Assembly (NCBI GenBank): GCA_049650505.1
Contig: JBASAH010000485.1
Coordinates: forward strand, 1 to 55,656
Direction of reading: 5' to 3'
DNA from: Xanthobacteraceae bacterium
Lineage (GTDB): Bacteria > Pseudomonadota > Alphaproteobacteria > Rhizobiales > Xanthobacteraceae
Length of the DNA: 55,656 bases
The notes under the pieces are model-generated. The model did not search any database. It worked only from the letters and a program-made list of their open reading frames with translations, and had not been told where the DNA came from. Positions 12,235 to 55,656 of this stretch are shown in pieces. A program made the translations under genes and the position numbers. Position 1 is the stretch's first letter, and every line of letters starts with the position of its first letter.

Positions 12235-12236
12235 CC

Positions 12237-13259: not shown

Positions 13260-13275
13260 TGATGGAGATCAAGTG

Positions 13276-18648: not shown

Positions 18649-18658
18649 GACAACCGCC

Positions 18659-21600: not shown

Positions 21601-24600
21601 CGCCGGGCACGTTGGCTTGACCGCCGAGCCGGCCCTCGACGCCGACTTCGCGCGCCACCGTGGTCACCTGATCAGCGAAGGTGGCAAGCGTGTCGGTCAT
21701 GTTGTTGATGGTTTCGGCCAGCGCCGCAACCTCGCCCTTCGATTTCACGGTAAGGCTTTGCTTAAGGTCGCCGTTGGCGACGGCGGTCACCACCTTGACG
21801 ATGCCGCGCACCTGTTCGGTGAGGTTCGCGGCCATGACGTTCACGGTGTCCGTCAAGTCTTTCCAAGTGCCCGCGACGCCAGGCACTTGCGCCTGGCCGC
21901 CGAGCAAGCCCTCGGTGCCGACCTCGCGTGCCACACGCGTCACCTCCGAAGCAAATCCGTTGAGCTGATCCACCATTGTATTGATGGTGTTCTTCAGTTC
22001 GAGAATTTCGCCCTTCACGTCGACGGTGATCTTGCGCGACAGGTCGCCGCGCGCCACCGCGGTCGTCACCTCGGCAATATTGCGGACCTGCGTGGTGAGG
22101 TTCGCCGCCAGGAGGTTGACGTTATCGGTCAAATCCTTCCAGGTCCCGGCGACGCCGGGCACGACAGCTTGGCCGCCGAGGCGACCATCGGTGCCGACCT
22201 CGCGCGCAACGCGCGTCACTTCGGCGGCGAACGAGCGCAGCTGCTCGACCATGGTGTTGAGCGTGTCCTTGAGCAGCAGCATTTCGCCGCGTACGTCCAC
22301 GGTAATCTTCTTCGACAGATCGCCGCCGGCAATTGCCGTCGCTACTTCGGCGATGTTGCGAACCTGCGCGGTCAGGTTCGAGGCCATAAAGTTGACGTTG
22401 TCGGTCAGGTCTTTCCATGTGCCGGCAACGCCGAGCACTTGTGCCTGGCCGCCGAGCTTGCCTTCGGTACCGACTTCGCGCGCAACGCGCGTCACTTCGG
22501 ACGCAAAGGCGTTCAGCTGGTCCACCATCGTATTGATGGTATTCTTCAGTTCGAGAATTTCGCCTTTCACGTCGACGGTGATCTTGCGCGACAGGTCGCC
22601 GCGCGCCACCGCTGTCGTCACCTCGGCGATGTTGCGGACCTGCGCCGTCAGGTTGCCGGCCATCGAATTGACGCTGTCGGTCAAATCCTTCCAAGTGCCG
22701 GCGACGCCAGGCACGTTGGCTTGCCCGCCGAGCCGGCCTTCGGTGCCGACTTCGCGCGCCACACGCGTCACCTCGCCGGCGAAGCGGTTGAGCTGATCGA
22801 CCATCGTGTTTAGCGTTTCCTTCAGCTGAAGGATCTCGCCGCGCACGTCGACCGTAATCTTGCGCGACAGGTCGCCGCCGGCAATCGCGGTGGCGACTTC
22901 GGCAATGTTGCGCACTTGAGCGGTCAAATTGCCGGCCATGGAGTTGACGCTATCGGTCAAGTCCTTCCAGGTACCGGCGACGCCAGGCACCTGCGCCTGA
23001 CCGCCGAGCTTGCCCTCGGTGCCGACCTCGCGCGCCACGCGTGTGACTTCCGCGGCGAAGGCGTTGAGCTGATCGACCATGGTGTTGAGCGTGTCTTTCA
23101 GCTCGAGAATTTCACCACGCACGTCGACCGTGATCTTGCGCGACAGGTCGCCTCGCGCCACTGCAGTGGCGACTTCGGCGATGTTGCGCACCTGCCCCGT
23201 AAGGTTCGAGGCCATTGAATTGACGCTGTCGGTAAGATCCTTCCAGGTGCCGGCAACGCCGCGCACCAGAGCCTGACCACCGAGCTTGCCTTCGGTGCCG
23301 ACTTCGCGCGCGACACGCGTCACTTCGCCGGCAAACGCATTGAGCTGGTCCACCATGGTGTTGATGGTGTCTTTTAGCTCGAGAATTTCGCCGCGTACGT
23401 CGACGGTGATCTTCTTCGACAGGTCGCCGTTCGCAATCGCGGTCGACACTTCGGCAATGTTGCGGACCTGCGCGGTCAAGTTCGACGCCATGGAGTTGAC
23501 CGAATCGGTCAAGTCTTTCCAGGTGCCGGCAACGCCAAGCACGTTAGCTTGTCCGCCGAGCTTGCCTTCGGTGCCGACCTCGCGCGCGACGCGCGTCACC
23601 TCGCCAGCAAATGCGTTGAGCTGGTCCACCATCGTGTTGATGGTTTCCTTCAGCTGCAGGATTTCGCCGCTTACGTTCACCGTGATCTTTTTCGAGAGGT
23701 CGCCGCCGGCAATCGCGGTCGCCACTTCGGCGATGTTGCGGACCTGCGCGGTCAGGTTCGACGCCATGAAGTTGACGCTGTCGGTCAAATCCTTCCAAGT
23801 GCCGCCGACTCCGGGGACTTGCGCTTGGCCGCCGAGCTTGCCTTCGGTGCCGACCTCGCGCGCCACACGCGTCACTTCGGAGGCAAAAGCGTTCAGCTGG
23901 TCCACCATCGTGTTGATGGTGTCCTTGAGCTCGAGAATTTCGCCGCGGACATCGACCGTGATTTTGCGCGACAGGTCGCCGCGGGCGACTGCGGTCGTCA
24001 CATGCGCGATATTGCGTACCTGGTCAGTGAGGTTGCCGCACATCGCATTCACTGAGTCGGTCAAGTCCTTCCAGGTGCCGGCGACGCCCGGCACGATCGC
24101 CTGGCCGCCGAGCTTGCCGTCGGTGCCGACCTCACGCGCCACGCGCGTGACTTCCGAGGCGAACGAGCGCAGCTGATCGACCATCGTATTGATGGCTTCC
24201 TTGAGCTGCAGGATTTCACCACGCACGTCGACCGTGATTTTTTTCGACAAGTCGCCGTTCGCCACCGCGATCGTCACTTCGGCAATGTTGCGCACTTGCG
24301 CCGTAAGATTCGATGCCATCGAGTTGACGCTCTCGGTCAACTCCTTCCACACACCGGTGACGCCGCCGACCTGCGCCTGACCGCCGAGCTTGCCCTCAGT
24401 GCCGACTTCGCGCGCCACACGCGTGACTTCCGAGGTGAACACATTGAGCTGCTTGATCATCGTGTTGACGATCTCGGCTGAACGCAGGAACTCGCCCTTG
24501 AGCGGCCGTCCGTCGACGTCGAGCTGCACGGTTTGCAAGAGATTGCCCTGCGCCACCGCGGCAATGGCGCGGGTCACTTCCGTTGTCGGCCACAACAGAT

Positions 24601-24970
24601 CGTCGATCAGCGAGTTGACACTTGATTCCATCTCGCCCCAGGCGCCGTCGGACAGACCCAGGCGCACGCGCTGGCGCGTGCGGCCTTCGCGGCCGACCAC
24701 TTGGCCGACCCGTTCGAGCTGCTGCGCCATTCGCTGGTTGGTGGCGACGATGTCGTTAAAGGTGTCGGCGACCTTGCCGATGAGACCGACGCGGTCGCCG
24801 GCCATGCGCACGGAAAAATCGCCCACACGCATCGCCTGCAGCGCGTGGAGAAGTTCGGTCAGACTGTGTTCGGTCAGGGCGCCGGGATCGTCGCCGTTGA
24901 CGTGGCGCTCGCCGGTTGCGGCGGGGGCTTCGGCGTCCTTTGCGCCAACGACGTCTTCAGCGATCTGCAT
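18659..24970 (-). CDS. Giant soluble poly-HAMP / GAF / HisKA-HATPase hybrid histidine kinase with three receiver domains (2103 aa)
   Basis: I prefer the ATG at 24970 (GGAG 7 nt upstream) over the track's TTG at 24982. There is no N-terminal hydrophobic segment. About 3 N-terminal HAMP-like units are followed by 11 tandem 92-aa units, each holding two HAMP-type helix-connector-helix modules. A GAF domain and a long coiled coil follow. The H-box reads SHELRTPLN (His codon near 20654-20656) and the G-box reads [12 protein letters not shown]. Three REC domains follow (LLIVEDD.., LLVVEDN.., ALLVDDD..). Confidence 0.9.
21395..24430 (-). repeat. Eleven in-frame tandem 276-bp repeats inside the kinase gene
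   Basis: The [10 protein letters not shown] motif recurs every 92 codons (track aa 185, 277 ... 1105). Spot comparison of two units gives about 90 percent nucleotide identity. Confidence 0.9.
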
Positions 24971-25410
24971 AGATTGCTCCAAAGGCAGGCGAAGGGAGAA
25001 CGCCGCACATCATGCCGGTGAGTGCGCGAAGGTTCATGATTGGCAACATAGGCGGACACCGCAAAGGGCGCAGCGTAAGGGACACGGCGCGAAGCGTAAG
25101 CCGGAATATGGCGAAGAAGCGGGCGCAAAAGGCAGAGATTAGGCCGCCGGTCTCGCGCTGCTGCACCCTCGTGAGGCCGCCTAGGTATGCAGCAGCATCC
25201 CGCGGGCACAACACCCGGGGCGCAAAATATCGGAACCGACGTGGAATCCCCCTCACGTGTCGGGCCTCGACCTTCCTTGCCTCGACGCAAACGCCGCGGG
25301 TCGGGGTTCGTTCCCGCCTTACACAGAAAATTTGGCAGACGGGATGGATCAATCCCATGCAGTATATGAATTTAATCCTACACTATGTCGGGCAATCACA
25401 TAATCGCGCG

Positions 25411-39093: not shown

Positions 39094-39642
39094 ATGGCTA
39101 AAACATCAGCAGCAGCTCGCAAGCGCGGCGAGAAATTTTCGGCGCCGGCCAAGATGACGATCACGCTCCTTGTCAACGGCGTGGCGAACAAGCTGACCCT
39201 GGCCCCGTGGACTACGCTGCTTGACGCGCTGCGCATCCGTCTCGGTCTGACGGGTACCAAAAAGGGCTGCGACCACGGCCAATGCGGCGCCTGCACCGTT
39301 CTGGTCGATGGCCGGCGGATCAATTCATGCCTGACGCTCGCCGTTATGAAGGACGGTGCGCAAATCACGACCATCGAAGGATTGGCGAAAAACGGCGCGC
39401 TGCATCCAATACAGCGAGCCTTCATCGACTATGATGCCTTCCAGTGCGGCTACTGCACGCCCGGCCAGATTTGTTCCGCCGTCGGCTTAATTGCCGAAGG
39501 GAGGGCGCACACGGCCGATGAAATTCGCGAGCTTATGAGCGGCAACATCTGCCGCTGCGGCGCCTATCCCAATATTCTAGCCGCGATCGAACAGGTCCTT
39601 TCCCAGAAATCGGCGTCGCCGCCGCGAGACGGAGGATCATGA
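39094..39642 (+). CDS. Xanthine dehydrogenase-family [2Fe-2S] small subunit, no Tat signal
   Basis: Carries GTKKGCDHGQCGACTV, FQCGYCTPGQ and NICRCGAY motifs. The ATG at 39094 is chosen, with MTITLLVNG as a possible alternative start. There is no RR motif. Confidence 0.85.
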   Translation: MAKTSAAARKRGEKFSAPAKMTITLLVNGVANKLTLAPWTTLLDALRIRLGLTGTKKGCDHGQCGACTVLVDGRRINSCLTLAVMKDGAQITTIEGLAKNGALHPIQRAFIDYDAFQCGYCTPGQICSAVGLIAEGRAHTADEIRELMSGNICRCGAYPNILAAIEQVLSQKSASPPRDGGS

Positions 39643-40655
39643 ACAATTTTGAGTTCAGTCGAGCGAGCGACGTCGCCGACGCTGTGCGCCAGATGGCCGC
39701 CGATCCCGCCGCGAGATTCGTCGCCGGCGGCACCAATCTGATCGATCTAATCAAGGAAGGCGTGGCGACGCCATCGCGGCTGATCGACATCACTCGATTG
39801 CCTCTCGGCCGCGTCGATGAAACGGGCGATGGTGGACTTCGCGTCGGCGCTCTCGTTCCAAACAGCGATCTGGCGTATCACCCACAGATTGAGAAGCGCT
39901 ATCCATTGCTGCGCAGCGCGATCCTCGCTGGAGCGTCGCCGCAATTGCGCAACATGGCGACAACCGGTGGAAATCTTCTGCAGCGCACACGCTGTTTCTA
40001 TTTTTATGACACAACGACGCCTTGCAATAAGCGCGAGCCTGGAAGCGGCTGTTCGGCCATCGACGGGCTCAATCGCATGCATGCAATCCTTGGCGCCAGC
40101 GAGCACTGTATCGCGACCCACCCATCGGACATGTGCGTAGCGCTGGCGGCGCTAGACGCGCGAGTGCTGGCAACCGGCCGCGATGGCGAGCGCGGCATCG
40201 CGTTCGCCGACTTCCATCGCCTGCCGGGCGACACACCGCAGCTCGATACAAATCTGAAAAAGGACGAAATCATAACCGCGATCGAACTGCCGCCAAAAGG
40301 CTTCGCCGCAAACTACAGCTATCTGAAAATCCGCGATCGCCTGTCCTATGCGTTTGCCTTGGTGGCGGTCGCGGCAGCTCTGGAAATCGAGAATGGCGCG
40401 ATTAAAGAGGCGCGCCTCGCACTCGGTGGCGTGGCACATAGACCATGGCGCGACCGCCAAGCCGAGTCGCAACTGCGCGGAGCGCCGGCGATCCGCGAGA
40501 GCTTTGTGCGGGCGGCGGATAACGTGCTGCGTGACGCGCGCGGCTTCGGACACAATGACTTTAAAATCGAGCTGGCACGGCGCGCCATCGTGCGCACCTT
40601 AACGCAGGCGGCGAACGGAACGCCGCAGTCGCAAAGCGACAAACGTATCACGTAA
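39639..40655 (+). CDS. Xanthine dehydrogenase-family FAD-binding subunit
   Basis: ATGA start/stop overlap at 39639. Reads FVAGGTNLIDLIK...NMATTGGNLLQRTRC. Confidence 0.88.
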   Translation: MNNFEFSRASDVADAVRQMAADPAARFVAGGTNLIDLIKEGVATPSRLIDITRLPLGRVDETGDGGLRVGALVPNSDLAYHPQIEKRYPLLRSAILAGASPQLRNMATTGGNLLQRTRCFYFYDTTTPCNKREPGSGCSAIDGLNRMHAILGASEHCIATHPSDMCVALAALDARVLATGRDGERGIAFADFHRLPGDTPQLDTNLKKDEIITAIELPPKGFAANYSYLKIRDRLSYAFALVAVAAALEIENGAIKEARLALGGVAHRPWRDRQAESQLRGAPAIRESFVRAADNVLRDARGFGHNDFKIELARRAIVRTLTQAANGTPQSQSDKRIT

Positions 40656-40666
40656 GCGAAACGAAT

Positions 40667-42892
40667 ATGGCCGACATGACCACTAGTTATCTCGGCAAGC
40701 CGATCTCGCGGGTCGACGGCCGCGCCAAGGTCACCGGTGCTGCGAAATACGCGGCCGAACACAACGTGTCCGGCCTAGCTTATGGTTTCGTCGTGTCGTC
40801 GGCGATCGCCAAAGGCCGCATCTTGCGTATCCACACCGCAGACGCATTGTCGGTCCCCGGCGTACTCGACGTGTTCACGCACGACCATCGGCCGAAACTG
40901 GCAGCCTCAGACAAGAAATACGGCGATGAAGTCGCCCCACCCGGCTCGCCGTTCCGGCCGCTGTATGACGATCGGATTCGATTTAGCGGTCAACCGGTGG
41001 CTTTGGTTGTTGCCGATGATCTGGAAACCGCGCGCTTTGCGGCGTCGCTTATCCGCGTCGACTATGAGCAACAACAACACATCACCGATTTCGAAGCACA
41101 TCACGGGCGCGCGCGTGTCGTCAACGAAAACGACGAAAGCCACTCGCATAAACGGGGCAACGCCGCCAAAGCCTTCAGCCAAGCGCCAGTTCGCGTTGAG
41201 GTCGAGTACCGGATGCCGGTCGAGCACCACAATCCGATGGAAATGTTCGGTGCAACCGCAGTGTGGGAAGATGATGACCGCATCACGATCTACGACAAGA
41301 CCCAAGGTCCGCAGAATTGTCGAAACTACGTCGCTAACGTGTTTGGAATGGCCCAGGACGCGGTTCGCGTTTTGTCACCCTATGTCGGCGGCGGATTTGG
41401 ATCCGGTTTGCGTCCGCAATACGAATTGCCACTCGCGGTGCTGGCGGCGCGGGCGCTGCGGCGCTCGGTGCAGGTGGCTTTGACGCGGCAGCAGATGTTC
41501 ACAATCGGGTATCGGGCCGCGAACATTCAATCGCTGGCGCTCGCCGCCGACCGCGATGGCAAGCTTGCGAGCTTCCGTCACCAGTGGGTCGGCATCACGT
41601 CGCAGTTCGAAAATTTCCAGCGCAATTACGTGACTTGGTCGAGCCTGCTCTACAAATGTGACAACGTCGAACTCGTGCAAAAGCTGGTCAAGCTCGATCA
41701 GAACACGCCGTGCGACATGCGCGCGCCAGGCGGAACGGAAGGCCTGTTCGCCATCGAATGCGCGATGGATGAGCTTGCCTATGCTGCGGGAGTAGATCCG
41801 CTGACGCTGCGGCTCTCCAATTATTCCGACAAGGATCAGGTCGAGGGCAAGCCTTACAGCAGCAAGGAGCTGCGCGAGTGCTATCGCGAGGGCGCTGAGA
41901 AATTCGGTTGGTCCAAACGCAATCCGCAGCCGCGCTCGATGAAGGATGGCAACGAGCTGGTTGGCTGGGGCATGGCGACCGGCATCTGGGAAGCGATGCA
42001 GATGAAGGCAAGCGCCAAAGCGGTGTTGACCGCTAACGGCAGCGTCGAAATCAGTAGCGCGACCGCCGATATCGGGCCCGGGACCTACACCATGATGACC
42101 CAGCTTGCCGCCGACATGCTCGGTGTGCCCATCGAGCACGTAACGGCAAAGCTGGGGGATTCTGCGCTGCCGGATGCGCCGGTTGAAGGCGGATCCTTTA
42201 CAACATCATCGGTCGGCTGTGCCATTCAGGCTGCATGCCGCGAGGTGCAGAAGGAACTCCTTCGACTCGCGCAAAGAATCCCGCGCTCGCCGCTCGCCGG
42301 CGCGAAATTCGAAGATGTGACATTTGCGGAGGACGGCATTCGACATAAAAGTAAAAATGTCGAGGTATCCCTCGCCGACGCCATGCGCGCCGGCAATATC
42401 GACCGCATTGAAAAGGAGGCAAGCGCCGAGCCGAACGAGCACAGCAAATATTCCCACTACACGCATTCCGCGGTTTTCGCCGAGATCAGGGTCGACGAGC
42501 AGATCGGGGTCATCCGTGTAACGCGCATCGTGAACGCCGTGGCCGCTGGCCGCATTCTTAATCCCAAGCTTGCCGCGAGCCAGATTCTCGGCGCCGTGGT
42601 CGGCGGCATCGGCATGGCGCTGCACGAAGAGACGTTAGCTGACAACCGGTTCGGCCGCTTTATGACTCATAACCTCGCTGACTATCATGTACCAGTGAAT
42701 GCCGACGTGCACGCGATCGATGTGATCTTCGTCAACGAGAAAGACGACGAGATCAACCCACTCGGCGTCAAGGGCGTTGGTGAAATTGGCATCGCGGGAA
42801 CCGCCGCAGCGATCGCCAATGCGGTCTATCACGCCACCGGCAAGCGCGTTCGCGATCTACCGATTACGATCGATAAGCTGCTGCGCCATTGA
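40667..42892 (+). CDS. Xanthine dehydrogenase-family molybdopterin-binding large subunit
   Basis: The 741-aa product carries RVDGRAKVTGAAKY, GGGFGSG and GVKGVGE motifs. It is a paralogue of 13276..15558. Confidence 0.9.
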   Translation: MADMTTSYLGKPISRVDGRAKVTGAAKYAAEHNVSGLAYGFVVSSAIAKGRILRIHTADALSVPGVLDVFTHDHRPKLAASDKKYGDEVAPPGSPFRPLYDDRIRFSGQPVALVVADDLETARFAASLIRVDYEQQQHITDFEAHHGRARVVNENDESHSHKRGNAAKAFSQAPVRVEVEYRMPVEHHNPMEMFGATAVWEDDDRITIYDKTQGPQNCRNYVANVFGMAQDAVRVLSPYVGGGFGSGLRPQYELPLAVLAARALRRSVQVALTRQQMFTIGYRAANIQSLALAADRDGKLASFRHQWVGITSQFENFQRNYVTWSSLLYKCDNVELVQKLVKLDQNTPCDMRAPGGTEGLFAIECAMDELAYAAGVDPLTLRLSNYSDKDQVEGKPYSSKELRECYREGAEKFGWSKRNPQPRSMKDGNELVGWGMATGIWEAMQMKASAKAVLTANGSVEISSATADIGPGTYTMMTQLAADMLGVPIEHVTAKLGDSALPDAPVEGGSFTTSSVGCAIQAACREVQKELLRLAQRIPRSPLAGAKFEDVTFAEDGIRHKSKNVEVSLADAMRAGNIDRIEKEASAEPNEHSKYSHYTHSAVFAEIRVDEQIGVIRVTRIVNAVAAGRILNPKLAASQILGAVVGGIGMALHEETLADNRFGRFMTHNLADYHVPVNADVHAIDVIFVNEKDDEINPLGVKGVGEIGIAGTAAAIANAVYHATGKRVRDLPITIDKLLRH

Positions 42893-47399: not shown

Positions 47400-47582
47400 A
47401 TGACCATCTTCCCGCTCGGCGTTTCGCGGTTTTCAAAATTGATTACGCTCTGCTTTCTAAGCTTGAGGCGGCATTATGCCGGCGCCAAACTGGAGAGCTT
47501 GAGCGATAGAGGCCTGCAAGATATCGGCCTTGAACCGTACAGGCGGGATTTCGACGCCGTTAAGCCGTTCTGGATGCCCTGA
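47400..47582 (+). CDS. DUF1127-domain small protein
   Basis: The LESLSDRGLQDIGLEPYRRDF segment matches the DUF1127 signature (L..LSD..L.DIGL.R.D.). Confidence 0.7.
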   Translation: MTIFPLGVSRFSKLITLCFLSLRRHYAGAKLESLSDRGLQDIGLEPYRRDFDAVKPFWMP

Positions 47583-47618: not shown

Positions 47619-48929
47619 ATGAACGTTACTCGGCTCAAATCGAGCCGCACTTTGCTGCTGTGCGGACTTGTGATGGCGGTATCGGTCGCCGGCCCGCAGC
47701 TTATTCACGCTCAATTGCGTGGTCATGGCGGGCCGGTGCGAGCGCTCGCGATCTCGTCAGACGGGACGCATGTGGTCTCGGGCAGTTTCGATACATCGGC
47801 AATTCGCTGGTCGCTTTCGCGCAATGTTGCCGAGCAAGTCATGCGCTTTCACGATGGCCCGGTGAATGCGGTCGCGTGGCTCAAGGACGGTCGGATCGTG
47901 ACCGCGGGCGGCGACACGCACATTGCTATCTGGACGCCGGGACGACAGACGCCCGATCGGGTGCTTGACGGCCATACTGGGCCAATCGTCGCTCTCGCCG
48001 TTTCGCCAGACGGCAAGACGCTGGCATCTGCGTCATGGGATCGCACTGTCCGGCTGTGGCCACTCGCAGGCGGACCGCCACGGGTATTGGAAGGCAATGC
48101 GCAGAACGTCAATGGTGTAGCGTTCTCGACCGATGGCGGTCAGATTATTGGCGCCGGTTACGATGGTACGATTCACGCTTGGCAAGTTGCCGGCGATGGC
48201 GTGTCCGTGCACAACCTGCCAAGCCCGCTCAACGCCGTGGTGACTACACCGGACGGCGAAATGATAGTGGCCGGGGCCAGCGGGAAAATTTACTTCCTGT
48301 CCTCCATCGGCGAGGTGCTGGGTGAACTCCAAGCCGGAACGACACCGACAATTCAGCTTGCGATCCCCAATAATGGCCTGCTCGTTGCCGCCGCCAGCAC
48401 GCGCGGGTCGGTAGCGGTGATCGATCGCAAGCAGCGTACGCTCATACACACGCTGGTCGGCCCCGGATTACCGGTGTGGGCGATCGCGTTCTTGCCCGAT
48501 AACAGCACATTATTGACTGGCGGTACGGATTCCGTCATTCGCCGCTGGAACGCGGTTACCGGTGAGCCGATCGACTCTGCGCTTGTCGGCGTGCCGGAAG
48601 ATCCGCTCAAACGGTATGCCGGCGATCATGGTGCTGAAGTGTTTCGCGCCTGCGTCGCGTGCCACACGCTCAGGGCCGACGAGGCCCAAAAGGCCGGTCC
48701 TACGCTCTGGCACATTTTCGGTCGCCGTATCGCGACGCTTCCGGGCTATAATTTCTCACCGGCCTTAAAGACCCTCGACATTATTTGGTCCAAGGAAACG
48801 GTTGCGAAGCTGTTCGAAATCGGGCCGGCGCACTACACGCCGGGCACCAAAATGCCGGAACAGACCATCGGGGTCGAAGCGGACCGTAAGGCGCTCGTTG
48901 ACTTTCTTGCGCGCTCGACCACGAACTAG
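47619..48929 (+). CDS. Periplasmic WD40 beta-propeller fused to a class I c-type cytochrome domain
   Basis: It has a signal peptide (LLLCGLVMAVSVAGPQLIHAQ) and repeated GHxGPVxALAxSxDGxxxxSxSxDxTxxxW blades. The C-terminal domain carries CVACH heme-binding and GTKMP axial-Met motifs. Confidence 0.85.
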   Translation: MNVTRLKSSRTLLLCGLVMAVSVAGPQLIHAQLRGHGGPVRALAISSDGTHVVSGSFDTSAIRWSLSRNVAEQVMRFHDGPVNAVAWLKDGRIVTAGGDTHIAIWTPGRQTPDRVLDGHTGPIVALAVSPDGKTLASASWDRTVRLWPLAGGPPRVLEGNAQNVNGVAFSTDGGQIIGAGYDGTIHAWQVAGDGVSVHNLPSPLNAVVTTPDGEMIVAGASGKIYFLSSIGEVLGELQAGTTPTIQLAIPNNGLLVAAASTRGSVAVIDRKQRTLIHTLVGPGLPVWAIAFLPDNSTLLTGGTDSVIRRWNAVTGEPIDSALVGVPEDPLKRYAGDHGAEVFRACVACHTLRADEAQKAGPTLWHIFGRRIATLPGYNFSPALKTLDIIWSKETVAKLFEIGPAHYTPGTKMPEQTIGVEADRKALVDFLARSTTN

Positions 48930-48966: not shown

Positions 48967-51039
48967 TTAGCTCTCGCCTTCCTCCTGGCGCGCACGCAAA
49001 TAGTCATCGGTAGTGCGCAAGCGCGGACGCTGCGGCGCGCCGAACGGATCGAAGTTCTCCTCAGCCGTCAACTGGACGCGACAGTCGGCGCACATTTTCA
49101 CGAGGTCGATCCGCCGCGTTGGACCCTTGTACATCCAATGCTTGTCCTCAAGCTTGGCGGCCACCCGTTCGACCGAGCTTTTGACTCCGAACGGAGCTCC
49201 ACAGCGGATGCAGAGGAACGGATCTTCTTGCTTGATGACACGGCTTGATGCCGTTGCCGCACGAAAATCGATCTGCGGTTTCAGACTGATCACTTTTTCC
49301 GGACAGGTCGATTTACATAATCCACATTGCACGCAAGCGTCTTCGGTGAAACGCAGCATCGGCCGCTCTGGATCATCTAACAACGCGCCGGTCGGACAAG
49401 CCGAAACGCAGGACAGGCACAGAGTGCAGCCGTCGACATTCACCTCGACTTTGCCGAAGGGTGCGCCCTCAGGCAGGCTGATCACGTCGACCGGCGTCGG
49501 GGCCACTGCGTGCAACTCGCGCAACGCGAGTTGGAGAACTTCGCGCTTATTACCGACGGCCGAGAAAGTAGCGGGTTTGACCAGATTGTTCAGCGCTGCG
49601 ATACCCCGCAGGCTGTCGCCCAGCGCGTCGGGATCATCGGTTTCGATTGTGTCGATGCGCGCGCCGTCAAAACCGAGCCCGGTCACGATCGTCTTATTCA
49701 AGGCAATCGTTCTGACCAGCCCGCTCAAATCGTGCCGCGGATTGGAGCGCAGCAGAAAACGTACCGCTGCTGCGCCATAGGCAAACGCACCGGCGAGTGC
49801 CTCCAGTCCAATCTGGGTGATCTCATTGACTTCTACCGGCAACACATGAGCCGGCAGCCCGTCGCCATGCCGCGCCAGCGCCTCAATAAGGGGGCGGCCG
49901 TGGTCGCCGTCATGAAATAATAGTACCGGCTCCGCGCCACCTGCTTCGCGGTACGCGGTGAGCAGTACACGCAGTTTTCGCAAAAACGCATCGGGAGGCG
50001 GCAAGGCATAAGCTGCAGCGCCAGTCGGACAGACGGCAGCGCACTGGCCGCAACCAGCGCAAATCTGCGCGTCGATGGCGACATGATCCCCATTAGGCGT
50101 GATCGCGCCGGTTGGGCAGAGATCGAGGCAACGATGACACCCGACGATATTCGAGCGCGAATGCGCGCATAGATGTTCGGTAAATGTAATATAGCGCGGC
50201 TTCTCGAACGATCCCGACAGGTCACGCGCTTTCAGCACGGTCCGCAGCATCGCCGCTGCATCGCCCGGATCGGCGCGCAGATACCCATCGCGCAGATCGG
50301 GTGAGGAAAATAGCGGAACGCCGCCGGAAAGGTCGATTAAAACATCACAGTGCAGTTCAACATCGTTGCGCGGCGCGCTGAATTGCAACCGATCGCGCGA
50401 GGAAGGCGCCGGCGCGGCGTAGCTATCGACCCGCAGTTTGAAAGCTCCAAGATGGCCAGTGGCTGCTTTGATCGCGCCCTTCAGTAGCGGAAATTCCGTT
50501 ACCCCGGCGGGCGATACTCTATCGCCCTCGGTGACCAGAACAGTGATGTCGAGATGGTCCTTTAATAGATTGGCGGCCTCGACTACGTGCTCGTCCTTAC
50601 CATAGAGCAGCGTGACGCCTTCACTTGTTAGATTAACGACTGGAGGATCCGGCATCGGCTCGCAGGCGGCCGCGATCAAAGCCGCTATTTTCGGCCCGGC
50701 GGCTTTGGCGTCTTTCGACCAACCTGCCGTCTCGCGAATATTGACGAACGCGATCGCGTTCTCGCCGATAATCTCCTTAAACAGCGGCGCCTCCTGGGTA
50801 CAGGCAACCGCGATTGGTTGTCCATCAGCCGCCGCGCCGCGAACGCGGTCGAGCTCGGCGCGACAAAGTTGGCGTCCTTGCAGCGTCTCCGCGCCGCGGC
50901 ATACCCGCTCAATGCCGGCGCCGTCGAGCGGCATCGTGTCCTCGCAGGAGCAGATCAGGATCTTCCGCGGCCGTTCCGTCATTTTCGCTACTAGGGTTTT
51001 CTTGTCCTCTTGTTTGCCCGACCTAAAGGCAATCGCCAT
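48967..51039 (-). CDS. Large multi-cluster iron-sulfur (poly-ferredoxin-like) protein
   Basis: The 690-aa product has two 2x[4Fe-4S] ferredoxin motif pairs (CHRCLDLCPTGA/CAGCGQCAAVCPTGA and CTLCLSCVSACPTGA/CVQCGLCKSTCPEKV). It also has an N-terminal ILICSCEDT motif and a C-terminal CIRCG...CADCR motif. A GAGG RBS precedes the ATG at 51039. Confidence 0.85.
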   Translation of the reverse strand: MAIAFRSGKQEDKKTLVAKMTERPRKILICSCEDTMPLDGAGIERVCRGAETLQGRQLCRAELDRVRGAAADGQPIAVACTQEAPLFKEIIGENAIAFVNIRETAGWSKDAKAAGPKIAALIAAACEPMPDPPVVNLTSEGVTLLYGKDEHVVEAANLLKDHLDITVLVTEGDRVSPAGVTEFPLLKGAIKAATGHLGAFKLRVDSYAAPAPSSRDRLQFSAPRNDVELHCDVLIDLSGGVPLFSSPDLRDGYLRADPGDAAAMLRTVLKARDLSGSFEKPRYITFTEHLCAHSRSNIVGCHRCLDLCPTGAITPNGDHVAIDAQICAGCGQCAAVCPTGAAAYALPPPDAFLRKLRVLLTAYREAGGAEPVLLFHDGDHGRPLIEALARHGDGLPAHVLPVEVNEITQIGLEALAGAFAYGAAAVRFLLRSNPRHDLSGLVRTIALNKTIVTGLGFDGARIDTIETDDPDALGDSLRGIAALNNLVKPATFSAVGNKREVLQLALRELHAVAPTPVDVISLPEGAPFGKVEVNVDGCTLCLSCVSACPTGALLDDPERPMLRFTEDACVQCGLCKSTCPEKVISLKPQIDFRAATASSRVIKQEDPFLCIRCGAPFGVKSSVERVAAKLEDKHWMYKGPTRRIDLVKMCADCRVQLTAEENFDPFGAPQRPRLRTTDDYLRARQEEGES

Positions 51040-51137
51040 CAGCGCCTCAAGTCTCGCGCGGCAAACGGTCCGAACTGCGGGACTTTATGGGCCATGCGGT
51101 TATATGTAAAAAGACCACAAAATAACAGCGAGGATCG

Positions 51138-51881
51138 ATGGCGCCAGTGACGCGGGCAACTGTTGCGGCGGAACTGATATTGCCGCCGCCCTATCATGCG
51201 GTGCGACTGCGCGAATTCGGCGATGCATTTGCGCACGCGGTTACACTCGCACCGCAGCGCGGCGCCGGGACTCTCGTCTATGTGGGAAGGTTCGACCTCG
51301 CCGAATTCGCGGTGGTGCTCGAACCGACAGAGCCGCTCGCCCAAGGGCGCAGCGTGTTCTACGCCGGGATGGCCGCCTTAGCTGACGCGATTGCCACAGC
51401 CGCGCCGCCGGAAACCGCCATCCATATCGAATGGCCGGACGCCTTGTATGTAAATTGGGCCTTAGTTGGCGGTGGCAGACTAGCTTGGCCGCCGGAAACC
51501 GGCGCGGGTAACGTTCCGGAATGGCTGGTGTTTGGCGCCACGATCCGAACCGCAAGCAGCACGGAGGCCGATCCCGGCCTCACCCCTGACCTAACGGCGC
51601 TGGACGAGGAGGGTTTTGCCGAAATTAGCTCCAATAGTATGATTGAGGGCTTTGCGCGTAATTTGCTGCTGCTACTCAGCGATTGGCAGGAAGGCCACTT
51701 TACAGCTGTCCGCAAATCCTATTTCGAGCGTCTTTCGCGCGACGACCGCCAGCACTGGGACATCGATGACAATGGCGACCTTATAAGCCGCGTTGCCAAC
51801 GATAAAACCGAGCGCAGGGCCCTGCTGCCTCGGCTCGAAAAACCTGAATGGCTCGATCTGTTCAGCAAAGGACACGTGTGA
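51138..51881 (+). CDS. Biotin/lipoate protein ligase-like (BPL/LplA/LipB fold) protein of unknown function
   Basis: In this 247-aa product, the IHIEWPDALYVNWALVGGGRL segment resembles the BirA/LplA core strand (KWPND..). No complete ligase motif set is seen. The assignment is from memory and needs HMM confirmation. Confidence 0.5.
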   Translation: MAPVTRATVAAELILPPPYHAVRLREFGDAFAHAVTLAPQRGAGTLVYVGRFDLAEFAVVLEPTEPLAQGRSVFYAGMAALADAIATAAPPETAIHIEWPDALYVNWALVGGGRLAWPPETGAGNVPEWLVFGATIRTASSTEADPGLTPDLTALDEEGFAEISSNSMIEGFARNLLLLLSDWQEGHFTAVRKSYFERLSRDDRQHWDIDDNGDLISRVANDKTERRALLPRLEKPEWLDLFSKGHV

Positions 51882-52414
51882 AGCTGCTGCGTACCATCCG
51901 TCTCGATGCATCGGATACATTCGTTTTCGATGTTCCCGCCGAGGCCGGCGACTGGGCAGTTTCGGGTGCATTCGTCTTCTGGAACAAAGATGCTGCGAAC
52001 CTCGAAGGCAAAGCGCGCGCGGCGTTTCGCAGCGGGTTTCTCGGAGTAAAGTCATTGGGCTGGTCAACCTTAGCCCAGGTCGTCGAGGCGACCGTGGCCG
52101 AGCGCGCCGCTCTGGTCGATACGCTCGCCGATCAATTAATTCAGCATTTCGGAGCGCCCACAATCGAAGCAGCCAAGGCGGCGGCAGAAGAAGAGGTTGC
52201 TTTCGCCGAATCCCTCTGCACCATTCCGCAGGACAGCGTTATCGCCGTCCACCGTAGTTTCGAAAATGGCGCGGTACGCGAAACCTTTCGCGCACTTCGC
52301 GGCAGAGAAGGCGCAAAGCCCACGCGCGCATTCTCCTTCATCGAGACTGAAGGCGACGATGAACCAAGCGAACAAATCGATTTGATAGCATTGGGGGAGC
52401 GGGAGCATAAATGA
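51878..52414 (+). CDS. Unknown-function protein (resembles DUF6505 family)
   Basis: The GTG at 51878 overlaps the upstream stop (GTGA). The product starts (M)KLLRTIRLDASDTFVFDVPAEAGDWAVSGAFVF. The ATG at 51848 is an alternative start. Confidence 0.6.
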   Translation: MKLLRTIRLDASDTFVFDVPAEAGDWAVSGAFVFWNKDAANLEGKARAAFRSGFLGVKSLGWSTLAQVVEATVAERAALVDTLADQLIQHFGAPTIEAAKAAAEEEVAFAESLCTIPQDSVIAVHRSFENGAVRETFRALRGREGAKPTRAFSFIETEGDDEPSEQIDLIALGEREHK

Positions 52415-53418
52415 CCGACTTTTGGCTCTCCTGCGGGCATCATTTTCTCGACCGCGATGACGGCGGCGGCTACGTTGTCACTGACGATTTCCTAAAAATC
52501 TATCTGGCCCGGCCAGAATTACTCCCGCCACCGAATGCCTGTCCGATCGAACGCAGTTTGCATAGTGCTCTGCTCGCCGATCCTCGCCGGTTAGTCGCGG
52601 CTTCCGAAATTCAGAGCATCACTGATGCGGACGCACGGGAAAATTGGGAACTTTTGATCGCCTTCCGCGATCATCTCTTGGCGCATAAAACGCTGGAAGC
52701 CAGTTTTGTTGATCTCATCCGTCGCGGCGTAGGCAAAACACCACCTCTGTTCATTAATCAGCTCGTCCATGCGATTCTTCGCAACGCGCTTGATGCTACC
52801 GCCGACCCCTGCACGTTGCGTGCCGGGGAGATGTTCTTTCGGACGCAGCGTATTTCGCTACACGAAGGTTCGCTGATCGCGGCGGACGAGGAGACGGTCG
52901 CCGCCGGCAGCCAACTGCCAGTGTCGCCATTAGTTTCGATGCTCGGGTTGCCGGCAGATTCCGAGATCGAAGTACTCAACGAGAGCAATGCCTCCACATA
53001 TTGGCAGCGCAGTGATCGCTTCGACATGGCACTCGATTTGACTGCTGGCCGGGAAGGTCTTGCAGCGCTCGCGAAAGCGATGGAGCTATGGATAAACCAC
53101 CTGTTGGGTTTGGAGGTGGCAATCGAGCCGCTGACGGAGCTCCGCGAGGCTCCGGTAAGCTGGTATGTAGGTCTCGATGCTGAAGCCACCCGAATCGCCG
53201 ATGCGCTGTGGAATGGCGAGGAATTGGATGAGGACGCGATGGCGCGCGTGGTCGGCTTATTCCGTCTGACCTTCCCCGACGCCGGCCTCATGATTGATGA
53301 TGTGAGAGGCGAACCTATCTATCTCGTGCTCGCGATGACTCACGAACGTCTGATCCGCATGAAGCCGCAGAATCTGGTGACCGGCTTGCCGGTAAAACAT
53401 ATTGAGGCAGTGGGTTGA
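52411..53418 (+). CDS. Unknown-function protein (resembles DUF6352 family)
   Basis: ATGA overlap at 52411. The 335-aa soluble protein starts MTDFWLSCGHHFLDRDDGGGYVVTDDFLKIYLARPELLPPP. Confidence 0.6.
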   Translation: MTDFWLSCGHHFLDRDDGGGYVVTDDFLKIYLARPELLPPPNACPIERSLHSALLADPRRLVAASEIQSITDADARENWELLIAFRDHLLAHKTLEASFVDLIRRGVGKTPPLFINQLVHAILRNALDATADPCTLRAGEMFFRTQRISLHEGSLIAADEETVAAGSQLPVSPLVSMLGLPADSEIEVLNESNASTYWQRSDRFDMALDLTAGREGLAALAKAMELWINHLLGLEVAIEPLTELREAPVSWYVGLDAEATRIADALWNGEELDEDAMARVVGLFRLTFPDAGLMIDDVRGEPIYLVLAMTHERLIRMKPQNLVTGLPVKHIEAVG

Positions 53419-53933
53419 GCTTAATCGCGCCGCTTAGAACTATCGCGGTCGGCATCGTCGTCGAGCGCAGCAAGAGCGCTGGACCTTGGACCGATTTTCT
53501 GTGGCGACCGATCACTGCTTTGGGCGGCGCTCCCGACACTCCGCCTTGGACCAAGTTGTCGGATGACGGGGAGCGAGCGACTTTTTTTGTCGGCACCGCC
53601 GACATTGAGCTTTATCGCTCGGAAGCTGGCAATTACCGGCAGAATCTGCTGGTCGAGATGCCGCTGCTGTGGGTCGCGTTACGACGAACCGAAGCCGATC
53701 CACCCTACGTCTTAGCAGCTGTAACTGTCGATCCGGCAGAGGGCGAGTCCTGGGCTGCTCTCGGCAACGATCTCGTCGATACTGTCGCAATGCCGACGGC
53801 GGTCGAGGCGCTGGTCGCCGAATTCGTTTCGGAGCATTATGTCGAGGAGCCGTTCCTTAAGCGTCAGCGCGACCGCGCTCATCCAGAGACCTTGGCGCGG
53901 CGCTCGCCGGCAGCGGACCCTCGCAAACCATGA
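53415..53933 (+). CDS. Unknown-function protein (resembles DUF3305)
   Basis: The TTG at 53415 overlaps the upstream stop (TTGA). The product reads (M)SLIAPLRTIAVGIVVERSKSAGPWTDFLWRP...VAMP..V..FV..HY. Confidence 0.6.
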   Translation: MSLIAPLRTIAVGIVVERSKSAGPWTDFLWRPITALGGAPDTPPWTKLSDDGERATFFVGTADIELYRSEAGNYRQNLLVEMPLLWVALRRTEADPPYVLAAVTVDPAEGESWAALGNDLVDTVAMPTAVEALVAEFVSEHYVEEPFLKRQRDRAHPETLARRSPAADPRKP

Positions 53934-54535
53934 CCGAGCCTGAAAATTTTCTAAAGCGATGGTCGCAACGCAAACTGGCCGAGCGCGAGCGCTCGAAGGA
54001 CGAACACGCAACGAACCAGAACGCCCCTGTTGAGCATGATGCTTCGGCGGCGGAGCCGCCACAAATCGATGGCATGGCTAAGGCCAGCGACGAGGCCTTT
54101 GACCTTGCGGATCTGCCAGCCATTGATTCGATCGCCGCGAACACCGACGTCACCGCTTTCCTTCGCCCTGGAGTACCGCCGGATTTGACCCGTGCGGCAC
54201 TTCGGCGCGCCTGGACCTCCGATCCGGCGATCAGGGATTTTGTCGGCCTGGTCGAGAACGGATGGGATTTCAATGATCCCTCCGCAATGGCCGGCTTCGG
54301 TACCATCACCGCAGATGAAGTGGCGCAGCTGGCATCGAAGATTATTGGCGAGCCTATAAGGGCTATTTCCGACCCCCCGCCAGCCAAAACTATAAAAGAA
54401 GACACGGCGGAGCCGTCAGGAAGTCCTCTTCTCGAAGCTGCCAGGCCCAAAATCGCGGATGCGACTGAAGCCAGCAGCAGCGAAGAGAAAGAAGACGAAA
54501 ATGACGCACCGCAACAAAGCGGCGCCTCTTCGTAA
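53930..54535 (+). CDS. Unknown-function protein (resembles DUF3306)
   Basis: ATGA overlap at 53930. The product starts MTEPENFLKRWSQRKLAERE, has an acidic disordered middle, and carries a conserved-looking RRAWTSDPAIRDFVGLVENGWDFNDP block. Confidence 0.6.
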   Translation: MTEPENFLKRWSQRKLAERERSKDEHATNQNAPVEHDASAAEPPQIDGMAKASDEAFDLADLPAIDSIAANTDVTAFLRPGVPPDLTRAALRRAWTSDPAIRDFVGLVENGWDFNDPSAMAGFGTITADEVAQLASKIIGEPIRAISDPPPAKTIKEDTAEPSGSPLLEAARPKIADATEASSSEEKEDENDAPQQSGASS

Positions 54536-54687
54536 CCTGACCCCCATTCACCCAGCGACATAGCCTCCGGCTATTGACCGCGCCTCCGACACGGCGATAG
54601 CTTCTTCGCTGAAAAATCTCCTGTTCGCGCTTGGGGGGACGCGGTGCGAGCTGGATTACAACGACAACAACGACAACCATGTGAAGC

Positions 54688-55452
54688 ATGGCTGATAGGG
54701 GACTCAAGGAGGCTATTCGCGCCGTCGGTGGCGTCACCGAGCTTGCGCGCCGCATCGGAATTTCCCAGCCGTCGGTTTCGAACTGGGGCAGAGTGCCCGC
54801 GGAGCGCGTTGTTCAGGTCGAAAGCGCGAGTGGTATTGCGCGTGCGATTTTGCGGCCCGATCTTTATGTCGAGCAGGACGTCGGCGACATCAATCGCGCC
54901 CGCGCGCAGGAATATGGGCTCTTGGCGCGGCTCCTCAGGGAAGCCCCGGATGCCGCGCTCCTGAAACAGATTGGGCAACTGCAGGGTGACGAAACGCCGC
55001 TCGGGGCAGCTCACCTTGCATTGGCGGAAGCGGCAAAAGAAGCAGACGCTGCCGCGATAGAGCACGAATTCTTCGACCTATTCATCGGCGTCGGCCGCGG
55101 TGAGCTTCTTCCATACGCATCATACTATCTGACTGGTTTCCTGCACGAACGCCCGCTCGCGCGTTTGCGTGAAGACCTCACTCGCATCGGCATTGCGCGC
55201 GCCGAAGGCGTGGCCGAGCCGGAGGACCATGTCGCGATCTTGTGCGAGATCATGGCTGGTCTTGCCAACGGTCACCTGCCGGGTGCCGAAGAGTCGAGCC
55301 GCACAATATTCGAAAGCCATATGGCGCCCTGGATAGGGCGTTTTTTCGCTGATCTCGAACGTGCTGAGAGCGCCGACTTCTACAGGCAAGTCGGTGCTGT
55401 TGGCCGGGTGTTCATTGAAATTGAAACCGAGGCTTTCACGCTGCCGTTGTGA
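54688..55452 (+). CDS. Fusion of a Cro/YdaS-type HTH domain to a TorD-family redox-enzyme maturation chaperone
   Basis: Residues 1-60 (LKEAIRAVGGVTELARRIGISQPSVSNWGRVPAERVVQVESASGIARAILRPDLY) align by eye with E. coli YdaS. Residues from about 65 to 254 (RAQEYGLLARLLREAPDAALL...EFFDLFIG...PYASYYLTGFL...EPEDHVAILCEIMAGL) match the TorD/DmsD pattern. There is no stop codon between the two parts. Confidence 0.7.
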   Translation: MADRGLKEAIRAVGGVTELARRIGISQPSVSNWGRVPAERVVQVESASGIARAILRPDLYVEQDVGDINRARAQEYGLLARLLREAPDAALLKQIGQLQGDETPLGAAHLALAEAAKEADAAAIEHEFFDLFIGVGRGELLPYASYYLTGFLHERPLARLREDLTRIGIARAEGVAEPEDHVAILCEIMAGLANGHLPGAEESSRTIFESHMAPWIGRFFADLERAESADFYRQVGAVGRVFIEIETEAFTLPL

Positions 55453-55497
55453 GACGCGCAACGCCAAGGATGACGCATCCTTAAAGGAGGATTGGCG

Positions 55498-55656
55498 ATG
55501 AGACCGGACAGCAAAAGTAAAATCGACCGTCGCGACCTTCTTCGCGTGCTGGGCGCCGGAGCCGGAGCAGTGGCAACTCCTGTCGCACTTGTCGCTGAAG
55601 CCCACGCCGATTCGGAAAGCAATGAGACGAAGCGCAAGGCCCGCTACAACGCAAAT
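55498..55656 (+). CDS. Small twin-arginine signal protein of the 'formate dehydrogenase region TAT target' type; 3' end cut by window
   Basis: AAAGGAGGA lies 8 nt before the ATG at 55498. The product reads MRPDSKSKIDRRDLLRVLGAGAGAVATPVALVAEAHA.. and the ORF is still open at the window end. Confidence 0.65.
   Translation, partial: MRPDSKSKIDRRDLLRVLGAGAGAVATPVALVAEAHADSESNETKRKARYNAN

Follow-up and report, generated by a model that had tools for sequence, protein, structure and literature searches.

Which enzyme is served by the genes at the downstream end of a 55,656-nt stretch of DNA from a Xanthobacteraceae bacterium (contig JBASAH010000485.1), and what do their products do for it? This whole stretch, referred to here as the window, ends inside fdhX, a gene for a small protein with a twin-arginine translocation (Tat) signal, and before fdhA. 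Upstream of fdhX lie a gene for a TorD-family chaperone carrying a helix-turn-helix (HTH) domain, a string of five overlapping genes (encoding a biotin protein ligase [BPL]-like protein, DUF6505, DUF6352, DUF3305, and DUF3306), and, divergent from the string, a polyferredoxin gene. A preliminary description, made from the sequence by eye, had proposed that these genes form an assembly, cofactor-handling, or electron-transfer module for a periplasmic enzyme resembling formate dehydrogenase (FDH). On balance, our analysis suggests that the region is the cytoplasmic accessory half of a locus of the FDH3 or FdhXABC type, and that the six-gene module matures this FDH before export by handling its bis-molybdopterin guanine dinucleotide (bis-MGD) cofactor and its iron-sulfur (Fe-S) clusters. 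That the six-gene set is dedicated to this FDH we consider probable.

Formate dehydrogenase in the closest relatives

The region past position 55656 was read from loci carrying homologs of DUF6352, in particular L001, whose DUF6352 is 93% identical to that of the window, and L002 (76%). L001 carries the same genes as the window from TctC onward and continues downstream with genes for a 68-aa Tat protein, a 976-aa molybdopterin subunit, a 198-aa Fer4_11 subunit, and a 330-aa cytochrome b (FdhX-FdhA-FdhB-FdhC). L002 has the same FdhXABC genes downstream and is flanked by TusA, three MoeA paralogs, MobB, MobA, and FdhD. The molybdoenzyme predicted to lie downstream was therefore found in both of the closest relatives. 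Its earlier designation as FDH-like can be sharpened to a true FDH. In L001, the alpha subunit carries a twin-arginine signal of its own (RRAFLRR) and a Cys-His active-site motif (ARICHSTTV), and matches chain A of PDB 9VAP (Shewanella oneidensis FdhA) over its full length with 1184 bits. The beta subunit reaches 337 bits with the NCBIfam equivalog model NF038355 "FDH3 subunit beta" (cut-off 240), and the gamma subunit 163 bits with TIGR01583, the model for formate dehydrogenase gamma (cut-off 116). As judged from its sequence, the enzyme of these close relatives is a genuine Cys-type formate dehydrogenase of the FDH3 or Shewanella FdhABC kind. The FDH of this locus type is best read as a Tat-exported, Cys-ligated, membrane-anchored periplasmic enzyme with a molybdenum- or tungsten-pterin cofactor.

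Conservation and gene order of the module

A scan of one genome per species identified at least 590 carriers of DUF6352, and the best 80 of these at least 590 loci were examined. They span Xanthobacteraceae, Pseudolabrys, Bradyrhizobium, Nitrobacter, Methylobacterium/Methylorubrum, Mesorhizobium, Bosea, Microvirga, and a few Gammaproteobacteria, and show a near-constant gene order: WD40-cytochrome c (plus strand), polyferredoxin (minus strand), BPL, DUF6505, DUF6352, DUF3305, DUF3306, HTH-TorD, FdhX, FdhA, FdhB, and FdhC. Every locus with enough flanking sequence carries the dehydrogenase, which is downstream of the module or, in gammaproteobacterial and rearranged loci, upstream. The start codon within the 4-nt overlap is kept at junctions 1 to 4 of the string in 62/69, 58/70, 69/79, and 67/80 loci, respectively (83-90%), and the gap between DUF3306 and TorD exceeds 60 nt in 64 of 71 loci. 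The five genes therefore form one conserved coupled unit, and fdhT-fdhX-fdhABC a second. Co-occurrence of the five genes with each other and with FDH, on which the idea of a dedicated module depended, was seen in essentially every related locus with enough flank, and the polyferredoxin gene was found in all loci with enough upstream flank, distant ones included. In the related genomes examined, the six genes (the five coupled ones and the divergent polyferredoxin) adjoin torD (fdhT)-fdhX-fdhABC.

The association takes several forms. In four loci of the gammaproteobacterial type, fdhXABC lies upstream and the polyferredoxin gene leads straight to DUF6505, without the BPL-like gene, the WD40-cytochrome c gene, or the HTH part of TorD; the HTH part is scored as missing because the match begins only at query residues 32-67. 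In L028, the set is split into DUF6352-DUF3305-DUF3306 and polyferredoxin/BPL-DUF6505. Four Methylobacterium/Methylorubrum loci (L073-L075 and L077) have the module upstream, with fdhABC downstream in L074, L075, and L077, while L073 ends first. Many loci are flanked by MoeA (two or three copies), MobB, MobA, and TusA. A variant gene order occurs in L005, L007, and L068 (e.g., L005 11149-13039), where TorD and FdhX separate DUF6352 from a DUF3305 of far greater divergence (34% identity in L005); in L005 and L068, a divergent DUF3306 comes next.

Distant DUF6352 genes (33-38% identity; L083, L084, and L086-L090) occur in other arrangements. L083 encodes polyferredoxin-TorD-MobA-DUF6352 with overlapping junctions. 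L084 has Mrp/ApbC-BPL-DUF6505-DUF6352, followed by a polyferredoxin on the minus strand and DUF3305-DUF3306, and in L086 the polyferredoxin, DUF3306, and DUF3305 are divergent from DUF6505-DUF6352-ankyrin. A complete fdhC-B-A-X-torD-polyferredoxin-DUF3306-DUF3305 operon is present in L087/L088, divergent from FdhD, HTH_17/PBP_like, DUF6352, and ankyrin genes, of which the FdhD-HTH/PBP_like-DUF6352 junctions overlap in L087. Neither a module gene nor an fdh gene is present within 2-7 kb of DUF6352 in L089 and L090. In independent lineages, the module neighbors genes that make, sulfurate, or insert bis-MGD (MoeA, MobA, MobB, TusA, FdhD, and TorD) and, once, Mrp/ApbC. The Mrp/ApbC-type Fe-S cluster carrier ATPase of L084 (1539-2630) lies directly upstream of BPL-DUF6505-DUF6352. 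In the unrelated loci L086 (4912-5631) and L087 (11038-11799), the ankyrin-repeat gene comes right after DUF6352, the position of DUF3305 in Alphaproteobacteria, with a stop/start overlap in L087.

Organization of the region in the window

The open reading frame (ORF) map reproduced all ORF positions of the preliminary description (Table 1), and each of the four 4-nt overlaps reads as it had been given (GTGA 51878, ATGA 52411, TTGA 53415, and ATGA 53930). Its by-eye family calls (Fer4, BPL/lipoate-ligase-like, the four DUF families, HTH::TorD, and a TIGR02811-like Tat peptide) also proved right, with Pfam calls far above the curated cut-offs. For DUF6505, DUF6352, DUF3305, and DUF3306, the scores compare with cut-offs of 23.9-25 bits and the models are covered over nearly their full length. 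No Pfam or NCBIfam hidden Markov model assigns a characterized function to any of the five string products, in agreement with the earlier statement that the four DUF families have none. For the DUF6505 gene, the GTG start yields the length of its homologs, and the upstream ATG merely gives the longest ORF. The gap between the DUF3306 and HTH::TorD genes is 152 nt. The divergent intergenic region shares no motif across the 59 loci compared, and holds a single weak sigma-70-like match on the minus strand (51110-51082).

Table 1 Features of the module region and their positions in the window
Feature	Position	Strand	Basis or remark
WD40-cytochrome c gene	47619-48929	+	ORF map, Pfam, NCBIfam
Polyferredoxin, 690 aa	48967-51039	-	ORF map; four Fer4 stretches (Pfam)
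Divergent intergenic region, 98 nt	51040-51137		Between polyferredoxin and five-gene string; presumed promoter region
Gene 1, BPL/LplA/LipB-fold protein	51138-51881	+	PF16917 BPL_LplA_LipB_2, 183 bits
Gene 2, DUF6505, 178 aa from GTG	51878-52414 (longest ORF from ATG 51848)	+	Pfam, 180 bits
Gene 3, DUF6352, 335 aa	52411-53418	+	Pfam, 199 bits
Gene 4, DUF3305, 172 aa	53415-53933	+	Pfam, 126 bits
Gene 5, DUF3306, 201 aa	53930-54535	+	Pfam, 84.5 bits
Palindrome ATAGCCTCCGGCTAT	54560-54574		Candidate operator; overlaps TTGACC box, candidate -35 element
HTH::TorD (fdhT counterpart), 254 aa	54688-55452	+	PF15943, 54 bits; PF02613, 105 bits
fdhX 5' part, small Tat-signal protein	55498-55656, runs off window	+	TIGR02811 partial match and Tat-signal model

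Properties of the encoded proteins

The polyferredoxin carries motifs for four [4Fe-4S] clusters, as well as two large stretches without a family match. Conserved in the family alignment are five N-terminal cysteines (C30, C32, C47, C59, and C80), the cluster cysteines (C291/C301/C304/C308, C327/C330/C333/C337, C538/C541/C544/C548, and C569/C572/C575/C579), and a C-terminal CxxC...CxxC pair (C610/C613/C650/C653). Its best matches among solved structures are FwdF, MvhB, and formate hydrogenlyase subunit 6, all via the Fer4 parts only, and its match to the NapF equivalog TIGR00402 is limited to the Fer4 portion and remains below the cut-off (44.5 against 102.2 bits). Reading by eye revealed neither an N-terminal signal-like segment nor an obvious membrane-spanning segment in any of the six module proteins, and by this reading the polyferredoxin is predicted to be cytoplasmic.

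The product of the WD40-cytochrome c gene, which the preliminary description had already placed just upstream of the module, has WD40 repeats according to Pfam, a signal-peptide-like hydrophobic N-terminal stretch (by eye), and a CVACH heme motif conserved in 56 sequences; its C-terminal part matches the NCBIfam cytochrome c-550 model below the cut-off (5.6e-11). Most alphaproteobacterial loci, from several families, have this gene immediately upstream of the one for the polyferredoxin (e.g., L002 5267-6556), whereas the loci of gammaproteobacterial metagenome-assembled genomes lack it. It probably encodes a secreted WD40 beta-propeller with a C-terminal class-I cytochrome c, and is a conserved neighbor whose membership in the module is uncertain.

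DUF6352 is represented by 1225 clusters at 50% identity in a representative library and has eleven invariant residues (E36, E47, R137, E140, R144, Q146, D159, G254, N321, L322, and P327). The charged and polar ones among them (E36, E47, R137, E140, R144, Q146, D159, and N321) are as expected for a ligand-binding or catalytic site. Its AlphaFold2 (AF2) model is confident, with a predicted local distance difference test score (pLDDT) of 91 and a predicted template modeling (TM) score of 0.89. A Foldseek search of the PDB with this model gave no match at E<=0.001 (TM<=0.16 among the 50 matches listed), and a sequence search of the PDB gave no match either. The AF2 model of DUF3305 (pLDDT 86.8) comprises a beta-rich domain, three helices, and a conserved basic tail that is predicted to be disordered. 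A fold search of the PDB with this model returned no match at E<=0.001 (best E 0.18, TM<=0.22), nor was any match found in a profile search of PDB sequences. DUF3305 also aligns, with E 1.4e-23, to positions 220-366 of the 382 positions of NF011058 "MobA, DUF3305 domain-containing", an NCBIfam model for MobA::DUF3305 fusion proteins, that is, to its C-terminal half. At 83 bits against a cut-off of 820, the window protein is a free-standing DUF3305 rather than such a fusion.

Conservation of DUF3306 takes the form of short motifs amid poorly conserved low-complexity sequence, namely an N-terminal FLxRWSxRK and a central block that extends from around LP.. to AALRRxWxxDPxIRDF. A C-terminal RRHGGALP motif is present in 52 of 73 homologs (more if variants are counted) and missing from the window copy. 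A frameshift hiding this motif in the window gene was considered but not adopted. In L001-L003, which are the closest relatives, no reading frame encodes the motif, so its loss in the lineage is at least as likely. An out-of-frame KRRHGGAV is encoded within the window DUF3306 gene at 54394-54417 and is not found in L001-L003; it may be the relic of a frameshift or a coincidence alike.

Profile-profile comparison (hhalign) of the module families with each other and with MobA, MobB, and TusA detected no relationship (best probability 14.6%); the five proteins are not diverged paralogs. Three metagenomic proteins (P0237, P0141, and P0197) are apparent fusions, DUF6505::DUF6352, DUF6352::DUF3305, and Fer4::DUF6352. 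A full-text literature search returned no paper mentioning DUF6352 or DUF6505, and DUF3305/DUF3306 only in Bay et al. 2015 (PMC4464133) and one unrelated paper.

HTH::TorD belongs to the TorD/NarJ family (PF02613, residues 101-221, cut-off 22.2 bits), preceded by a YdaS/Cro-type HTH (PF15943), and scores below the specific NCBIfam equivalogs for TorD (55.8 against 132) and DmsD (32.9 against 162). In its promoter, the perfect palindrome ATAGCCTCCGGCTAT has its sole exact match in the window and overlaps a -35-like TTGACC at about 54573-54578. Of 61 intergenic regions between the DUF3306 and TorD genes, 50 contain the ATTGAC box, and the palindrome halves ATAGCC and GGCTAT recur in 36 and 33, respectively. 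The palindrome, as a candidate operator, and the Cro/YdaS-like HTH fit autoregulation of fdhTXABC. An operator shared by the module promoter and the fdhT promoter was also considered and dismissed, given the single occurrence of the palindrome and the absence of a common motif from the divergent intergenic region.

The small Tat-signal ORF with a strong ribosome-binding site, as it was first described, is indeed preceded by AAGGAGG and passes the Tat-signal model. In its truncated form in the window, FdhX matches TIGR02811 "formate dehydrogenase region TAT target" partially (35.6 bits), and the full-length 68-aa L001 homolog reaches 44.5 bits against a cut-off of 48.45, with alignments covering 1-64 to 1-66 of the 66 model positions. 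A search with the 68-aa FdhX against the chains of solved structures gave no match, although such a search could overlook a mature peptide of only 30 residues if it came from a distant species.

Proposed role and alternative explanations

Gene context favors, without proving, a role of the module in assembly or cofactor handling over one in electron transfer. In the maturation model, the six proteins would form a cytoplasmic assembly on apo-FdhA before export, along with FdhT, MobA, MoeA, and FdhD. Within it, DUF3305 and DUF6352 may receive or hold the finished bis-MGD and help its insertion, a role suggested because DUF3305 is fused to MobA elsewhere and, in distant lineages, DUF6352 shares coupled operons with MobA, TorD, and FdhD. 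The polyferredoxin would work as NapF does for NapA, by supplying or reducing Fe-S clusters or by providing electrons for maturation, and DUF3306, with its conservation confined to short motifs, could serve as a flexible adaptor holding the partners together. The lysine-less BPL-like protein (see below) is a putative non-catalytic, ligand-binding add-on of Alphaproteobacteria. Finally, the HTH of HTH::TorD may bind the palindrome at its own promoter, and would thereby couple chaperone load to transcription of fdhTXABC. It is also conceivable, if rather unlikely, that DUF6352, DUF6505, DUF3305, and the polyferredoxin go beyond escort and together perform a novel electron-requiring step on the pterin cofactor or on the metal or sulfido site; the choice of tungsten over molybdenum, sulfuration, or an FDH3-specific tailoring could be such a step.

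The module could instead be a cytoplasmic electron-transfer system that builds no enzyme, in which the polyferredoxin and its partners take electrons from the FDH cytochrome b or feed a formate-linked reaction. The four [4Fe-4S] motifs and additional cysteine motifs are typical of electron-transfer polyferredoxins, the Fer4 parts find their best matches in FwdF, MvhB, and formate hydrogenlyase subunit 6, a gene for a periplasmic WD40-cytochrome c is conserved next to the module, and the stop-start overlaps suggest a stoichiometric complex. However, none of the partners has a recognizable redox cofactor or belongs to a substrate-binding family in Pfam or NCBIfam, nor was an obvious membrane-spanning segment for docking on FdhC seen by eye, and the distant contexts tie DUF6352 and DUF3305 to MobA, FdhD, TorD, and Mrp/ApbC, which are biosynthetic and non-respiratory, so that we regard this explanation as unlikely. 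More improbable still is that the module senses molybdenum or tungsten, oxygen, or formate and controls FDH expression or export via HTH::TorD. In its favor, Fe-S proteins often serve as sensors of oxygen or redox state, the chaperone carries a fused HTH, a conserved palindrome overlaps the -35-like box of its promoter, and overlapping junctions in L087 link an HTH_17/PBP_like protein to DUF6352. Yet six proteins with conserved stop-start overlaps exceed what a sensor usually needs, gammaproteobacterial versions retain the module without the HTH, and the palindrome is found at the fdhT promoter but not at the module promoter region.

The preliminary description had taken the BPL-like protein as a hint of an adenylation step or of covalent cofactor attachment, for instance to FDH or FdhX, which would be new to FDH maturation. 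Membership in the biotin/lipoate ligase fold family is clear (PF16917, residues 15-196, cut-off 27 bits), and the protein is the first gene product of the coupled string. The BirA/LplA/LipB superfamily has a catalytic lysine (BirA K183, LplA K133, and LipB K135). This residue is missing here because the window protein, which has four lysines in all, contains none in residues 1-192, and none of the four is conserved in an alignment of 68 family sequences. In addition, single-sequence and profile searches of the PDB recovered no characterized ligase, and the sole solved relative is PDB 3BFM (E 1e-19 with the single sequence, 8e-24 with the profile), deposited as a "biotin protein ligase-like protein of unknown function". 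Gammaproteobacterial modules keep everything else and lack this gene. The idea is thus unsupported, and ligase chemistry seems highly improbable. A similarly small chance attaches to an unrelated function that hitch-hikes with the fdh locus through synteny inherited within one bacterial order. Most of the 80 loci belong to Hyphomicrobiales, so that shared ancestry inflates the counts, and the DUF6352 genes of L089 and L090 stand beside no module or fdh gene; against this, the association outlasts rearrangement (L028, split in two, and the gammaproteobacterial loci with fdhXABC upstream) and recurs with another gene order in distant lineages (L083, L084, L086, and L087).

A number of observations weigh against a role of the module in FDH maturation. 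The window itself stops before fdhA, and gene neighborhood cannot separate maturation from electron transfer or regulation. As the confident models of DUF6352 and DUF3305 have no match in the PDB, structure gives no functional clue. The three apparent fusions among metagenomic proteins could be frameshift artifacts at overlapping junctions, and the DUF6352 genes of L089 and L090 lack module and fdh genes within the 2-7 kb around them. Moreover, the Shewanella locus as annotated (PMC2535785) has no adjacent DUF6505, DUF6352, or BPL-like gene, a comparison made with the annotation and not by a search of the genome.

Comparison with known systems

The Shewanella oneidensis locus SO_4503-SO_4511 encodes the same type of enzyme, as reflected in the full-length match of L001 FdhA to the SoFdhAB structure (9VAP_A, 1184 bits). 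Besides FdhA1B1C1, its products include FdhT, which resembles TorD, and the small Tat protein FdhX, and SO_4507 has been named fdhT (PMC13066108); HTH::TorD is its predicted counterpart. Directly upstream of fdhT-fdhX-fdhABC in Shewanella MR-1 lie genes for FdhD, two conserved hypotheticals, and an Fe-S protein, all of whose expression fell with that of fdhA in a single transcriptome (PMC2535785). Unlike the window, the Shewanella locus as annotated has no HTH on FdhT and no WD40-cytochrome c. Its two hypothetical genes are presumably DUF3305 and DUF3306. A literature search on fdhT/TorD and the Shewanella locus tags identified no functional study. The second enzyme of this kind is FDH3 (fdh3ABC) of Methylobacterium/Methylorubrum, whose NF038355 model is passed by the L001 beta subunit; the name of this model presumably refers to the Methylobacterium enzyme.

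The closest working analogy for the polyferredoxin and FdhT is offered by NapF and NapD. NapF is a cytoplasmic poly-[4Fe-4S] protein that reportedly binds the Tat-exported NapA before export and is implicated in its Fe-S assembly, and NapD is a signal-peptide-binding chaperone of the periplasmic nitrate reductase system. The polyferredoxin differs in being about four times larger than NapF, in its long stretches without a family match, and in its weak match to the NapF model, and the Nap system is not known to have any counterpart of the five DUF genes. FDH-N and FDH-O of Escherichia coli, Tat-exported and of the FdnGHI type, likewise have cytoplasmic factors of their own, as proposed here. 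Of these, FdhD both sulfurates bis-MGD and delivers it, and FdhE, an iron protein with CxxC motifs, binds to the catalytic subunit. Several module loci contain or adjoin a gene for FdhD, and the polyferredoxin ends in the conserved CxxC...CxxC pair. The annotation of L001, L002, and L087 showed no fdhE. Module loci have a TorD-family chaperone and FdhX, neither of which is known from E. coli FDH-N. No sequence relationship of the module to FdhD or FdhE was found, these pairs not having been compared directly by profile.

Part of this neighborhood was recorded in 2015, when the passages of Bay et al. on a "DmsD-fdh" group described DUF3305, DUF3306, fer4/hybA, and "fdh tat" genes around dmsD/torD-fdhGHI operons (PMC4464133). 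The TorD part of HTH::TorD belongs to the same NarJ/TorD/DmsD redox enzyme maturation proteins. In those passages, DUF3305 and DUF3306 are labeled putative membrane proteins, whereas our model of DUF3305 is a soluble beta-rich domain, and DUF6352, DUF6505, the BPL-like gene, and the HTH fusion are not mentioned there (PMC4464133). The window copy is an ordinary instance of a cluster found in hundreds of species, and its families already stand in Pfam as DUFs. The open literature searched does not define the set of six genes and their conserved stop-start overlaps, nor does it connect DUF6352, DUF6505, and the BPL-like gene with FDH3. Also absent from it are the lack of PDB fold relatives for two module proteins, the lysine-less BPL, and HTH::TorD with a conserved operator-like palindrome.

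The oxygen-tolerant FDH of the Shewanella FdhABC type is under development for electrocatalytic CO2 reduction, and was made in its native Shewanella host, so that this work says nothing on maturation without the enzyme's own accessory genes (PMC13066108). Because the module is widespread (DUF6352 in at least 590 species genomes), near-constant, and uncharacterized, it is an obvious candidate for missing maturation factors. If the proposed role is true, new players, two of them with folds absent from the PDB, would join TorD, FdhD, FdhE, and NapF in the scheme by which Tat-exported molybdoenzymes are assembled. The module is also of practical interest for the production of oxygen-tolerant formate dehydrogenases. 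If the genes prove dispensable, the finding shrinks to a conserved neighborhood of "known unknowns".

Other genes in the window

The window also contains two gene sets of the xanthine-dehydrogenase/CO-dehydrogenase family, with FAD-binding and large molybdopterin-binding subunits (12048-15558 and 39639-42892), and thus encodes other molybdoenzymes unrelated to the FDH locus. A 60-aa ORF at 47400-47582 was considered as DUF1127-like and discarded, having no Pfam match. Elsewhere, a minus-strand gene (18659-24982) encodes a 2107-aa hybrid histidine kinase with 11 HAMP and 10 HAMP_2 stretches, a GAF domain, a kinase core, and three receiver-domain stretches, and is adjoined by a gene (16792-18735) for a 647-aa protein with receiver, PAS, and HWE histidine kinase domains.

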